A DNA stretch of 64,000 bases, from the IMG/VR virus record IMGVR_UViG_3300021432_000008, positions 1-64,000 of that record; one strand, given 5' to 3'. The first letter of the stretch is position 1. Each line of letters begins with the position of its first letter. This stretch comes from a virus. A program made the position numbers and the translations under genes. The notes under the pieces were generated by a model. The model did no database searches, was not told where the DNA came from, and saw only the letters and a program-made list of their open reading frames with translations. Positions 12,387 to 16,457 of this stretch are shown piece after piece.

Positions 12387-12498
12387 GTCTGCCTCCCGTG
12401 TATACACCCTCCGGCCGCTTCCGTGCGAGCTCGGCAAGATCAACTACTACTGCTGATGGTCGCCGCCCCAACAAGAGGCTGCACGGCCGGAGGGATGC

Positions 12499-12891
12499 TC
12501 ACCCTGTCTTCTGCCGCTCGCGGTACTCCTTCTCGTATTCCCTGCGCCTCTCCATAGACTTCGGGCGGGCCCGGTATTCATGCCGGGCGGCGAGGCACCG
12601 ATTGCAGCTCTTGGCCTCGCCGAATTCAGACGCCTCCTTGGTCGCCTTGCAGCGCACGCACGTTCGCACTTGGAGAACACCGTCCGCGCGAATGCTCTCC
12701 ATGCGCTGCTCCTCGCGGCAGTACCGCGCCAGCAGCAGGCTCACGCGACGCATGAGCGCCACGTCGAACACTGTGTCGCCGGGCGGGACGGGCGCCGGCT
12801 CCGCAGCGCACCGCGGCCGGCTGAAGTGCGAGGGGCAGGGGGCGACGGTACTCGGGCGGCGGGCGTGAACTTCCTGGTCTGTGGCGTCCAT
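12499..12891 (-). CDS. Zn-finger protein immediately downstream of the CRISPR array
   Basis: CVRCKATKEASEF...CNRC; its GGAGGT SD overlaps the last repeat. Confidence 0.65.
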   Translation of the reverse strand: MDATDQEVHARRPSTVAPCPSHFSRPRCAAEPAPVPPGDTVFDVALMRRVSLLLARYCREEQRMESIRADGVLQVRTCVRCKATKEASEFGEAKSCNRCLAARHEYRARPKSMERRREYEKEYRERQKTG

Positions 12892-12899
12892 GATGACCT

Positions 12900-13372
12900 C
12901 CCGCAACGCCTTCAAAGTTCCCTGAGCCGTTGCTGGCCGACGTGTTGTGAGGACAAGTTCGATAGCTACGTCTGCCAGCAACTATCTCAAGGTTCCCTGA
13001 ATCGTTGCCGGATGAGCGACTGATAGCCCCCTGGTCTTCTTCGACGACCCGCAACGCTCTCAGGGTTCCCTCGATCGTTGCCGGGCCTATTCCGGAGATC
13101 CCAAGATGACCCGCAACTTTCTCAGGGCTCCCTTGATCGTTGCTGGCCGCCGGCGATCGTCTCGAAGGTGTGCCGAATGCTGTACCCGCAACTTTCTCAG
13201 GGCTCCCTTGATCGTTGCTGGACGATCCTTTTACCACCTGGAGATTATCGACCATGCAAGTCCCGCAACTTTCTCAGGGCTCCCTTGATCGTTGCTGGTT
13301 GTCTGGAACCCAGAACACCGCTGCCTGCATTGCCGCCCGCAACTTTCTCAGGGCTCCCTTGATCGTTGCTGG
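12900..13372 (-). CRISPR. CRISPR array: 7 x 37-bp repeats (transcribed CCAGCAACGATCAAGGGAGCCCTGAGAAAGTTGCGGG), 6 spacers of 38,36,25,38,40,37 bp (left to right)
   Basis: Repeats at 12900, 12975, 13048, 13110, 13185, 13262, 13336. The four right-hand copies are identical; the left three carry 5, 7 and 11 mismatches, so the leader is on the right. Confidence 0.95.
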
Positions 13373-13589
13373 AGTCGCGGCCATAAAGGCATTGTTCCAG
13401 CCCATTTAAGCGACGTTTCGCGAGAGGCGCCCATCGGCAAGCGATTGTGGCCTTGGTCGCGCTCAGCTTGGCGGTAGCTGGATGTTGGCAGCATTGGAGT
13501 TACGTCTCCGCGAGCGGTTCGCCGCAACCTATTTGGAACAAACGGTGTCCATCAAGTGGGTTACGGCAAGATCCGCTCTGTCCATCGAT
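13373..13589 (-). promoter_or_regulatory. CRISPR leader (possible tracr/scout RNA region)
   Basis: Non-coding gap beside the conserved array end; CGCGAG(A/C)GG direct repeat at 13419 and 13509. Confidence 0.65.
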
Positions 13590-13949
13590 TCAAGCGCCAC
13601 GCCGCTCGCGGAGTCGCTCTAGTTCAGCTGTCAGTTCCGCCTCGCGCTGGCGGAGAGCGTCGTCGCTGCTCTCGCCGTCGTCGGCGATATTACATACCTC
13701 CTTCTGGGCGCCAACGCGCTGGCCGATCTCAATGGAACGCAAGCCCGTGTTCACGCCGCGCAGCGACGTGTTCAGCTCTTTGCTCCCGTGGGCGCCGTGG
13801 AGCGCATCGAGCGAATGTCCGATAGCGAAGTTGGTAATGTCCTGCACCGTGCGGATACCGCCGGATGCGACTTCGAGCGCCTTGCTCTTGCGCGGCCCGC
13901 CAGCAGTCGCCGGGTCGCCTTGACGTGTAATCGTGCCAGTCTCAGCCAT
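13590..13949 (-). CDS. 119-aa hypothetical protein between the effector and the array
   Basis: AAAGGGG RBS; MAETGTITRQG...; C-terminal coiled coil. Confidence 0.7.
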   Translation of the reverse strand: MAETGTITRQGDPATAGGPRKSKALEVASGGIRTVQDITNFAIGHSLDALHGAHGSKELNTSLRGVNTGLRSIEIGQRVGAQKEVCNIADDGESSDDALRQREAELTAELERLRERRGA

Positions 13950-13962
13950 TCGTCGTCCCCTT

Positions 13963-15117
13963 TCATGCAGCAGTCTCCTCTTCTCCGTCCGAAGCGCACC
14001 GGCAAACGATGCCGGTCGCCTTGAGCTTGTCCTTGAGTAGAGCCTTGAGCTTGAACCACGGGAACCGCTCAATGTGACCTTGTTCGAGGTCGCTGTACAG
14101 TACCGTGCCGACGCGGTTGCGTTGGGCAAAGCCAACAAGGTGCGCCGCTGTCTCGTGGAGCCACGAGGCCATGCGGTTGTGATGCTTTCGGCAGCAGCGG
14201 CCCCGCGAGCGGTTAATGGCGCCCAGCGCATCAGGATTGAGACGCCGCTCTGCCTTGCTGTCCTGCGCCAACCGGTCGAGTCTATCCTCATGGGCGGCAA
14301 GCCAGGCGAACGCTCGCTTCATGTGGTCGTTGTTGAGAACCCATGCCTGCCGCCCATCCAACTCCGCTACCCAGAAGGCATTCGGGTCGGTGATCAGAGT
14401 TAATACGCGATCGCCCAACTTCTCACGGCAGGGCAACTCTGCCACCATCTTGACCAGCACGCGGGAATCCTCGCGAGCTTCCAGCCGCGGTCGGTGGCAA
14501 CTCGGGGAGCAATGCTGCTCGCGAATAACCAGCTGGAACATGGGCAGACTACCGTTGACCACCTGCCGGAATAGCCCCATCTGCCGGCCGAACTCGGCAC
14601 CGCCACGAAGCTGGATGCCGACTCCGCCGTCTGGAAAGGAAAACTCCTGCGATGGCAAAACGACTTCGATACACGGTCTTCCATTGCGGTCCAGTCGTGC
14701 CTGTCGCCAAGCCTGCGCGTGGATTGGCCACGGGTAGGGATAGCGGTAGGTACATGGCGCCTGCTTGCGATGCCAGATGACGTTCAGCCGTTCAGAAATG
14801 TACTTGCGCTCCACGTCGCGACAGATGGTGGAGGCACTTCTGCAAGCCCCCGTCCACCAGTTGCCCGGTTGCGTGAAGCCGAACGTCTCACTTGCGAGCC
14901 CGTACAATCCCTTGAGCCGCTTGCCGTTGATCTTCGGCATCTTCGCTAGCTTGACCATGCCGGGCAGCCGAACCACGTCGTTGCGAAGGAGTTGCTGGAC
15001 GCACCAGTTCGCAAGCATGGTCGCCTGCTTCCAGCACTCCCTGATCGTCTCCCACGCCTCGCGGGGTTCGACCACATTGACGGGCAACTCAAACGCTCTG
15101 ACTACCGTGTCGCTCAT
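13963..15117 (-). CDS. Compact TnpB/Cas12f-like type V effector, predicted nuclease-dead and C-terminally truncated (384 aa)
   Basis: Bridge helix/RuvC-II pattern HNRMASWLHETAAHLVGFAQRNRVGTVLYSDL; FPWFKLKALLKDKLKATGI; RuvC-I region VLTLITDP; no CxxC/RuvC-III; adjacent co-oriented array; GAGGAAGG RBS. Confidence 0.8.
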   Translation of the reverse strand: MSDTVVRAFELPVNVVEPREAWETIRECWKQATMLANWCVQQLLRNDVVRLPGMVKLAKMPKINGKRLKGLYGLASETFGFTQPGNWWTGACRSASTICRDVERKYISERLNVIWHRKQAPCTYRYPYPWPIHAQAWRQARLDRNGRPCIEVVLPSQEFSFPDGGVGIQLRGGAEFGRQMGLFRQVVNGSLPMFQLVIREQHCSPSCHRPRLEAREDSRVLVKMVAELPCREKLGDRVLTLITDPNAFWVAELDGRQAWVLNNDHMKRAFAWLAAHEDRLDRLAQDSKAERRLNPDALGAINRSRGRCCRKHHNRMASWLHETAAHLVGFAQRNRVGTVLYSDLEQGHIERFPWFKLKALLKDKLKATGIVCRCASDGEEETAA

Positions 15118-15151
15118 CGCTTTTACCTTCCTCTCGCAGCGACCAGTCAAA

Positions 15152-15179
15152 ATCGTACACCCGGTTTTCGGCGTGTCAA
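15152..15179 (-). promoter_or_regulatory. Promoter of the Cas12-like gene (TTGACA-16-TACGAT)
   Basis: Consensus -35 and near-consensus -10, about 35 bp upstream of the ATG. Confidence 0.75.
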
Positions 15180-15220
15180 TACCCTCCCAGCGGTGTCCGA
15201 ATTGGCACGGGCATAGCCGC

Positions 15221-15260
15221 GCACGCTGGCGCACGGTTACGCACGCTGGCGCACGGTTAC
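15221..15260. repeat. Tandem 2 x 20-bp repeat GCACGCTGGCGCACGGTTAC
   Basis: Directly visible; core CGCACGCTGGCGCAC recurs at 16248-16262. Confidence 0.9.
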
Positions 15261-15286
15261 GCAGGGAGAAAAAAAGTGCGGGCCGG

Positions 15287-15565
15287 CTACTTTTTCTTTT
15301 CCGTCGCCTCTTCCTTCGTCCGCTCGATGCCTCGGAACATGCTGTAGCGGACCAGATCAAGCCAGTGCCAAACGTGTGCGTCTCCCATGAAGGAGTGCGG
15401 CAGAAGGTCGGGATAGCGCTCCCGCTCCGCCCGGAACTCGCTGTCGGTGAGCCCGAGCCACTTCGCTGCTTCCTTCTTGTCTGACCAAATCTGGTCGGGA
15501 GCATCGATGTACCTCAGCACACGTCCGACCTCCTTCGCCGGAGTCGCGGGAGCGAGCCGACTCAT
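15287..15565 (-). CDS. AlpA/excisionase-like HTH protein
   Basis: KKEAAKWLGLTDSEFRAERERYP...VWHWLDL. Confidence 0.6.
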   Translation of the reverse strand: MSRLAPATPAKEVGRVLRYIDAPDQIWSDKKEAAKWLGLTDSEFRAERERYPDLLPHSFMGDAHVWHWLDLVRYSMFRGIERTKEEATEKKK

Positions 15566-15583
15566 GGGCTTGCTACACCGAAC

Positions 15584-15653
15584 ATCGTAACGACGGTTAA
15601 TGCTACAGTCAACACGGAAATTTCATTTTATGTAACGATGGACGCGGTATAAT
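15584..15653. promoter_or_regulatory. Divergent promoter region (genetic switch 2)
   Basis: Minus: TTGACT-17-TACGAT. Plus: TATAAT at 15648-15653. Repeated TGCTACA and GTAACGA boxes. Confidence 0.7.
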
Positions 15654-15696
15654 GATATAGCGTCGGCTACCGTTACATTAGCCTTGCGAGCGTACC

Positions 15697-15948
15697 ATGA
15701 GCATTGCTACACTGGTCAATATGGCCAAGAAGCAGAAGACTGATCCGCCCGAAAAGAAGCCTAGCGCTGTCATCCGTGTAGAGGGAGACATCGCGCACAT
15801 GCTAAACACTATCGCATCGTGGCGGAAAAAGGACGTCCCCGACATCGCGTCCCCAATTCTCCGCGCGAAGGTTGAGCAGCTATTTGCGGAAGTGCATCGC
15901 GAAATGGGCAAGACGATCGGCACTCTTCACGACGACGAGAACACCTAA
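15697..15948 (+). CDS. RHH-like regulator
   Basis: SAVIRVEGDIAHMLNTIASWRKKDVPDIASPILRAKV; same architecture as 7045..7287. Confidence 0.65.
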   Translation: MSIATLVNMAKKQKTDPPEKKPSAVIRVEGDIAHMLNTIASWRKKDVPDIASPILRAKVEQLFAEVHREMGKTIGTLHDDENT

Positions 15949-16208
15949 AACCTCAGCCCCGCCGCCCTCAGCGCCTCTTCCGCCTCGATCTGCTCCCGCC
16001 GCAGCGCGTGCGCCGACGGCACGGGCACGGCAGGCACGACCGGCGTCAGCAGTGCCTCCACGTCAACGCGGCGCACGAGCAGACGAGTCCCGGCACGGCG
16101 AAGCGCGGGCAACTTGCCCTCGGAGACGAGTCGATAGATTGTGGCGACGTGGACGGACAGCAGGCGCGCCGCCGTCTTCGGGCTGATCAAATCGTTCGGG
16201 AGAGACAT
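15945..16208 (-). CDS. Excisionase-family (HTH_17) DNA-binding protein
   Basis: LISPKTAARLLSVHVATIYRLVSEGKLPALR...VRRVDVEAL; GGAGG RBS. Confidence 0.88.
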   Translation of the reverse strand: MSLPNDLISPKTAARLLSVHVATIYRLVSEGKLPALRRAGTRLLVRRVDVEALLTPVVPAVPVPSAHALRREQIEAEEALRAAGLRF

Positions 16209-16457
16209 GACATGGGACCTCCATGTGGACCGCGAGCGCATCCCTCCCGCACGCTGGCGCACACGAGCCGGCCGGGAGAGACGAGAGTATCCTGAAAGAT
16301 GGGCACATGCAGATGGGCATGCAGAGAGTGAAACGCAGCAACCCTACGTCGCCTTCTGGGCTTGGTCAAGGACATACGGGTGTCGCTCTTTCGCTTTCGG
16401 CAACCTGCTCCGCATTCGCTCGCGGAGCGTAAAATTGTGTTCGTGGAGGAATGAAGC

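Follow-up and report, generated by a model that had tools for sequence, protein, structure and literature searches.

A putative non-cutting CRISPR module of phages with a truncated Cas12f-fold effector and a conserved structured RNA

Can a phage carry a CRISPR system that binds DNA under RNA guidance and does not cut it? Among the CRISPR systems encoded by phages, those of huge phages and those with active nucleases are the most familiar. The question is raised by a locus in the IMG/VR virus record IMGVR_UViG_3300021432_000008 (76,940 bp, completeness estimate 93%), the first 64 kb of which constitute the window analyzed here. An initial annotation of this DNA placed on one strand of region 12900-15179 a promoter, a 384-amino-acid (aa) open reading frame (ORF), a 119-aa ORF, a leader and an array of seven repeats, and proposed a DNA binder unable to cut, i.e. 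natural CRISPR interference (CRISPRi). A promoter-like site, both ORFs and the seven-repeat array are indeed all present on the minus strand. The viral origin that it assumed agrees with the source of the window, a virus record, where a large ORF has a match to a family of portal proteins. From the whole of our analysis, the locus probably represents a phage-borne, adaptation-less, type V-like CRISPR module acting as a roadblock, i.e. by RNA-guided DNA binding without cutting. Its core would likely consist of three parts: the 384-aa effector with a disabled canonical RuvC site, a 108-nucleotide (nt) scaffold RNA and a short array. The loss of its cutting residues and the recurrence of the three-part module in many other phages make RNA-guided DNA binding, and not cutting, the probable activity of the effector.

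The effector gene (13963..15117, minus strand, taken from the ORF list) is preceded by an AGGAAGG ribosome-binding site. Nothing above cut-off was found for its product in Pfam, where OrfB_IS605 remained sub-threshold at E 0.16 and the Cas12f1-like_TNB zinc finger (PF07282) gave no match, and no PHROGs family was matched. An AlphaFold2 model computed with 41 relatives as input reached a pLDDT (predicted local distance difference test) of 89.9 and contained WED, REC and truncated RuvC domains. Foldseek matched this model to Cas12f at E 2e-16. VIA-align superimposed it on AsCas12f with Z 23.0 (336 residues, root-mean-square deviation 6.2), on the sigmaE-linked nuclease-dead Cas12f (dCas12f; PDB 9n9c) with Z 22.3, and on TnpB with Z 16. 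The profile of the family, compared with PDB sequences, retrieved dCas12f as the best match (E 4e-5), plus three active Cas12f proteins. The modelled effector thus firmly adopts the Cas12f fold, in line with the TnpB/Cas12f layout suggested at the outset.

The motifs on which that suggestion relied (VLTLITD, LYSDL, WLHETAAHLVGFA, and KATGIV followed by a short tail) are all found in the effector translation. The structural alignment of the effector to dCas12f stops at model residue 374-375, opposite residue 365 of the dCas12f chain, where that protein ends; the truncation point, after beta5, is the same in the two proteins. In the PDB profile alignments, effector position 342 is where the catalytic RuvC-II Glu of Cas12f falls, and the residue that follows this Glu in Cas12f lines up with D343. 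Mutation E324A of AsCas12f abolished nuclease activity, an effect not reported for D325A (bioRxiv 10.1101/2023.07.03.547593). The window effector retains the RuvC-I Asp (D244), has a serine (S342) in place of the RuvC-II Glu and has no zinc finger. An intact RuvC triad (D, E, D) is therefore not present, the RuvC-III Asp being absent from the effector or represented by Ala in a putative relic tail described below.

The residue statistics of the family rest on 199 relatives. Position 342 is occupied by D in 55% of them, by L in 17%, by R in 8% and by E in 3%, and D244 is retained in only 64%. No relative (0/199) has a CxxC motif after beta5 or in the C-terminal tail, and the median tail past residue 374 has 12 residues. 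On these grounds the canonical RuvC site and the zinc finger have been lost family-wide, which extends to the relatives the absence of the RuvC-II Glu and the zinc finger originally noticed in a single protein. We consider it likely that the effector has lost DNA cleavage. Its most conserved residues are mostly basic (R110, R333, R315, K288 and R292), a pattern that fits nucleic-acid binding, and R110, R333, D286, K288, E290 and W354 are near-invariant.

A word-indexed search yielded 60 relatives of the effector, and an exhaustive one (E up to 0.001) 717 clusters at 50% identity, nearly all of 380-450 aa and none of them named. The family is almost absent from NCBI sources. No relatives were found in 185,579 reference prokaryote genomes, in a scan limited by its search pattern; language-model neighbours of the effector include Bacteroidota proteins of 364-384 aa. 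Related loci were drawn from IMG/VR virus contigs and metagenome contigs. The initial annotation had tied its proposal to the linkage of homologues with arrays, and this linkage is solid: the window and all 17 distinct loci with at least ~600 nt past the gene contain a downstream array of 2-17 repeats on the same strand. The carriers are virus records of 16-119 kb. Two of them, each with terminal repeats, are complete phage genomes, and both contain the array; one record is labelled a provirus.

Adaptation genes were sought around the module. Cas1, Cas2 and Cas4 were not detected in the whole 76,940-bp record (Cas6 was not among the genes searched for), and Cas1 was likewise absent from ten other module-bearing virus records. 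The same 76.9-kb record gave no match to the Y1 TnpA transposase, to sigma-70 region 2 (sigma70_r2) or to TniQ, the Tn7-like gene sought (TnsB and TnsC were not searched separately). The absence of cas1/2/4, transposase, Tn7 (as TniQ) and sigma genes reported for the window thus extends to the record. Since the listed features are present and the sought genes absent from the record, the earlier observation was correct.

The array (12900..13372, minus strand) is composed of seven 37-nt repeats and six spacers, and its first repeat starts at 13372. The four repeats nearest the gene are identical and the three distal ones degenerate; the spacers are 37, 40, 38, 25, 36 and 38 nt long, the fourth being the 25-nt one. 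The distal repeats have 5, 7 and 11 mismatches, with terminal pairing intact. Repeats of the related loci differ in sequence and follow a common design: a length of ~37 nt, a covarying internal hairpin and a TGCGG-like end on the spacer side.

The segment first described as a leader proved to be something else, a conserved 108-nt structured RNA resembling scout or tracr-like RNAs (13373..13480, minus strand), defined by a covariance model and alignment and directly abutting repeat 1. In 18 loci an element of 105-108 nt precedes the first repeat, conserved in length and position, and in the compact loci it occupies nearly the whole gap between stop codon and array (~115-130 nt). Independent folding and an ungapped consensus distinguished three parts: P1, a 5-bp hairpin with a 7-nt loop; P2, a long two-part stem round a GCTTGCC loop; and P3, an outer stem enclosing GGGATAT and a small hairpin. 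The covariance model R1, built from nine sequences, matched the window once (13373-13480, E 7e-20). It recovered eight non-seed loci and gave at most one match per locus, except for a second copy in locus L021; there was none in L001. An Rfam scan of the window at the gathering cut-off returned no family.

In the scaffold alignment 77.6% of cells are paired, compared with 57% in shuffles and 35-42% with partners slid, and 24 of the 29 pairs have changed on both sides. The covariation score was 0.49 vs 0.16, and none of 500 shuffles scored as high. As the alignment was fitted to the covariance model, these pair counts lean towards structure; P1 was already recovered by RNAalifold from a plain MAFFT alignment.

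The P1 loop of the window RNA (ACCGCCA, 13469-13475, minus strand) would connect the scaffold with the array. In 16 of the 18 loci, loop nucleotides 2-5 are the exact reverse complement, in register, of repeat nucleotides -5..-2, and the remaining two match after a one-base shift. Eight different loop/repeat tetranucleotide pairs occur: CCGC/GCGG, TTGC/GCAA, CTGC/GCAG, CCTC/GAGG, CCCC/GGGG, TCGC/GCGA, CCAG/CTGG and CCGT/ACGG. Such covariation is the signature of base pairing, here predicted to join the scaffold RNA to each repeat at its spacer-proximal end. The comparison of sequences strongly supports the reality of the scaffold RNA and of its repeat pairing, and the scaffold looks like a scout/tracr-like RNA. 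The contact recalls the pseudoknot and the second repeat:anti-repeat contact of Cas12f and omegaRNA guides.

The RNA and the array appear to travel or duplicate together, since a second scaffold copy follows the first array of L021 (L021:4009-4114, found by R1), and in L001 (5809-6041, 6228-6959) a tail-peptide ORF and a small accessory ORF lie between two arrays, with a scaffold-like box before the second one.

A second conserved box, consisting of a CCGCTCGCGG-like stretch and then GTAA ... CAATG, was noticed at 13500-13530 (minus strand) of the window. Similar boxes occur in L005, L007, L008, L011, L015, L016, L017 and L024, placed ~40-90 nt upstream of the scaffold in loci with long spacing. 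In compact loci the stretch matching this box is the 3′ end of the effector gene with its stop codon; given this coincidence, the beginning of the scaffold RNA may, as in omegaRNAs, lie within the gene or right behind it.

Two small ORFs are situated between the effector gene and the scaffold RNA of the window. The first encodes 64 aa (13772..13966, minus strand), and its ATG overlaps the effector TGA (ATGA). It corresponds to a C-terminal module, an acidic-W helix followed by SHPAVS, which in 34 of the 199 relatives is fused to the effector as a tail of ~35-60 aa ending in the conserved SHPAVS-like motif. P0002, at 68% identity the closest relative, is one of the fused cases, while in L007 and L001 the tail is again a separate ORF. 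In the model of P0002 the tail forms a disordered linker and then a helix (residues 397-420, pLDDT ~90). Structural alignments made with the tail to active Cas12f proteins reach residues 403-404 of AsCas12f, around the RuvC-III D401, whereas without it they stop at 374; those to dCas12f end at model residue 374. A PDB profile search with the tail-bearing alignment gave no extension into the tail. Most members have Ala at the HP-x-V position that would correspond to the RuvC-III Asp; the others have D, S, K, E, Q, G or V there. From the structural alignment ranges and the likeness of the motifs we infer that HP-A-V-S is a relic RuvC-III motif whose Asp has been replaced. The missing C-terminus therefore looks split off into a separate ORF and not simply lost. 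The claim that RuvC-III is absent holds for the effector ORF itself, and has to be amended in that a putative relic segment is encoded by the separate overlapping ORF and is fused in the closest relative.

The second small ORF (119 aa, 13590..13949, minus strand) has no assigned fold and overlaps part of the 64-aa ORF in another frame. Neither ORF gave anything above cut-off in Pfam or PHROGs. Homologues of the 119-aa ORF were found by tblastn in L005, L015, L006 and L001 and by eye in L016, and are missing from compact loci; judging from this distribution, it is a putative optional accessory gene. Because the two ORFs overlap in different frames, SHPAVS and EVASGGIRT are written in the same nucleotides. 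The shared stretch lies at ~13860-13900 (minus strand), and both motifs recur in the distant loci L001, L002 and L015.

At the other end of the protein, an N-terminal CxxC...CxxC zinc ribbon was observed in 76 of the 199 relatives (P0061-P0199 in the alignment), never together with the C-terminal tail. The RuvC-I Asp is retained in only 53% of this zinc-ribbon clade. The window effector is without such a ribbon.

On the roadblock reading, transcription of the locus would be driven by a promoter ahead of the effector gene, for which a sigma-70-like consensus match is available (TTGACA-16-TACGAT, 15152..15179, minus strand, 10/12 positions); two sites of this kind were seen in the region, against 0.6 expected, and no terminator-like site was found across 12400-15700. 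The effector would be bound by the scaffold RNA, whose P1 loop would pair with the last 4-6 nt of each repeat beside the spacer and so complete a guide scaffold like that of Cas12f or omegaRNA systems. Positioned on complementary DNA without cutting it, the complex would block transcription or replication of the target, for which a rival mobile element or a gene of the host is the likeliest candidate. The relic RuvC segment would be made as a separate 64-aa peptide, probably docking on the effector, with the 119-aa protein as a possible optional accessory.

Spacers were compared with several sequence collections. Exact 26-nt seeds of spacers 1-3 had no match in IMG/VR or in the 185,579 reference genomes, and neither did a codon-degenerate pattern of spacer 3. 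The whole array, compared by blastn with isolate phages and plasmids, gave chance-level matches only (E ≥ 0.1). Sixty-three spacers compared with nine full module-bearing phage genomes, their own included, had no match, and seed matches occurred at chance. Self-regulation through perfect or seed spacer matches in the phage's own genome, considered as a candidate role, is unsupported, these matches being at chance level only. In the 75.5-kb contig G005 (the record of L016), the first array spacer occurs at both ends (411-446 and ~75483-75518), most simply as terminal redundancy of the assembly rather than as a protospacer. As no target was found, the biological role is read from the anatomy of the locus and from its relatives.

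Several observations weigh against a non-cutting binder. No spacer has a protospacer in the reference genomes, IMG/VR, isolate phages, plasmids or the nine phage genomes, and the loop–repeat pairing comprises only 4-6 bp. Among tail-bearing members D244 is present in 33/34 and D343 in 34/34, compared with 58% and 79% in the rest, which could reflect some remaining function of these members in metal binding or catalysis; part of the contrast may be due to common ancestry.

Dead effectors of type V may also act by bringing a partner. A role as recruiter, in which a host factor or one of the two small ORF products of the locus (64 and 119 aa) would be carried to the target, with activation, recombination or nuclease recruitment as the outcome, is unlikely, and is the best of the alternatives. 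Precedents exist, as dCas12f brings sigmaE and Cas12k brings TniQ/TnsC (PMC13472631, PMC11656645). In a subset of loci small conserved ORFs separate the effector gene from the scaffold RNA, and the fusion of one of them to the effector in 34/199 relatives suggests physical contact. However, in the compact loci L003, L009, L010, L012 and L019-L025 the ~115-130-nt gap is filled by the RNA, leaving no partner gene there, and no sigma, TniQ or transposase gene was found in the phage record.

The tail also bears on the improbable alternative of retained enzymatic activity. In this case D244, D343 and either an acidic residue at the start of the tail helix or D264 would form a RuvC site, rearranged or split, that cuts DNA, nicks it or only processes precursor CRISPR RNA (pre-crRNA), a comparison being Cas12c, which processes pre-crRNA with its scoutRNA. 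D264 is conserved in 183/199 relatives, D244 and D343 are nearly invariant where a tail is present, the tail aligns, on AsCas12f, with the RuvC-III region, and rearranged catalytic sites are known in TnpB (PMC10691335). Set against this are the variable residue at the canonical Glu position, the Ala that most members have for the RuvC-III Asp, and the loss of the zinc finger and of the region of an essential Arg (R383 in AsCas12f). Moreover, 165 of the 199 relatives have no fused tail, and compact loci encode none downstream.

The presence of the module in phages without adaptation genes would suit an anti-CRISPR decoy, a dead effector that soaks up host crRNA or trans-activating CRISPR RNA (tracrRNA), as proposed for the phage-encoded RuvC-dead Cas9 of type II-C2 (PMC12669027, PMC11656645). 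This is very improbable, given that the phages have their own arrays with diverse spacers and a scaffold that covaries with their own repeats, and no cognate host system is known, since the pattern-limited scan of 185,579 reference prokaryote genomes revealed no relative. A decaying, non-functional remnant of a Cas12f locus, to which the three degenerate distal repeats, the 25-nt spacer and the lost catalytic residues might point, is scarcely credible for a large family with conserved length, many near-invariant residues, compensatory changes in the RNA and an array that is always present, including in the two complete phage genomes.

Nuclease-dead Cas12f, TldR, Cas12m and Cas12c bind DNA to regulate or silence it (PMC13472631, PMC12669027), and Cas12k, Cas12m and Cas12c have been listed as nuclease-dead type V DNA binders (PMC12669027, PMC11656645). 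The closest relatives of the phage module are dCas12f and an array-linked dCas12f cluster of Hoffmann et al. 2026. C-terminally truncated dCas12f proteins act with sigmaE (PMC13472631). Like the window effector, the sigmaE-linked protein (PDB 9n9c; PMC13472631) has a Cas12f fold of ~365-385 aa, truncated after beta5 and with the RuvC site lost. Its gene is in an operon with an extracytoplasmic function (ECF) sigma factor gene and it uses a single chimeric or fused guide RNA without a CRISPR array; in contrast, the window phage has no sigma gene, and its phage-borne module has a multi-spacer array and a separate scaffold RNA. The sequence similarity of the two proteins is at profile level only.

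The second relative is an uncharacterised cluster of putative dCas12f proteins beside CRISPR arrays; a covarying RNA lies upstream of the array, and the proteins have been proposed to act as repressors (PMC13472631, Extended Data Fig. 1a,b). It was obtained from bacterial genomes by BLAST of NR, one example being a Chitinophagaceae metagenome-assembled genome with an efflux-promoter target (PMC13472631). It shares with the phage family a C-terminally truncated Cas12f predicted to be nuclease-dead, the array and the covarying RNA upstream; it is bacterial whereas our loci are phage-borne, and the two have been compared by description only. The suggestion that the locus belongs to an undescribed type V lineage, in phages whose putative hosts are planctomycetes, has to be narrowed accordingly: no published description of the phage family, of the loop–repeat contact or of the split tail was found in the literature, but truncated dCas12f proteins beside arrays had already been mentioned, without characterisation (PMC13472631).

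The features of type V systems are found here in the TnpB-derived WED-REC-RuvC fold of a single effector and in its conserved link to an array. Type V-F is the nearest subtype by structure, as AsCas12f is the best structural match, and it has the same small size and a helper RNA between gene and array. The phage effector differs in having no TNB zinc finger, RuvC-II Glu or RuvC-III Asp, and Cas12f uses a long anti-repeat, whereas the scaffold–repeat complementarity seen in the phage sequences is 4-6 nt in a loop. The scoutRNAs of Cas12c and Cas12d are also separate structured RNAs with few nucleotides complementary to the repeat (PMC11127173), although the effectors that they serve, at over 1000 aa, have no relation to the phage protein in size or subtype; sequence alone is compatible with a phage scaffold that is its own transcript as well as with a processed leader. 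Cas12c has been reported as a DNA binder that represses transcription.

Other non-cutting proteins are less similar in organization. TldR is a tiny, dead, RNA-guided repressor of TnpB fold, partly encoded on temperate phages. It works with one omegaRNA, and its genes are linked to those for flagellin or ABC transporters, unlike the present module with its many-spacer arrays. Cas12m (V-M) and Cas12k (V-K) are type V binders that do not cut and reside on mobile elements (structural Z 12-16). They are larger (~600 aa), Cas12k needs Tn7 genes, and Cas12m, as described (PMC10442227), has a non-canonical RuvC triad rather than a truncated domain. TnpB of IS200-IS605 elements is accompanied by TnpA and a single omegaRNA at the right end; here there is an array and no Y1 TnpA match.

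A broader account of these findings is attractive, and we advance it tentatively, as somewhat less probable than an even chance. The module would represent a widespread, phage-specific and unnamed type V subtype with the smallest natural array-using CRISPR effector (~384 aa), a RuvC-dead derivative of Cas12f. Its guide would consist of a crRNA and a trans-acting 108-nt scaffold joined by a 4-6-nt loop–repeat kissing contact, with the relic RuvC peptide separate in some lineages. Phages of medium size would rely on the module to silence competitors or genes of the host while leaving the DNA unbroken.

The finding would mean that phage genomes of ~47-119 kb bear a cut-free and adaptation-free module. 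If this is true, it would provide a CRISPRi tool of natural origin, with multiplexed guides and an effector of only ~384 aa, and a new scout-like helper RNA whose contact with the repeat is directly legible in covariation. Programmable DNA binding by so compact a protein would be of practical interest for size-limited vectors. The module might also be an evolutionary intermediate between Cas12f and array-less dCas12f/omegaRNA-like systems, and the split or fused state of the C-terminal peptide offers a handle on the decay of the RuvC domain. Altae-Tran et al. inferred that Cas12f activity was lost with RuvC-III before the array shrank (PMC10691335).

Some further features flank the module. An ORF (12499-12891) begins directly past the last repeat of the array. 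Just upstream of the effector promoter, two tandem copies of the 20-nt unit CGCACGCTGGCGCACGGTTA are located at 15220-15259, and a 75% copy is found at 16248-16267, near an HTH_17 gene (15945-16262). Judged by its arrangement, this 20-nt unit may be an operator.

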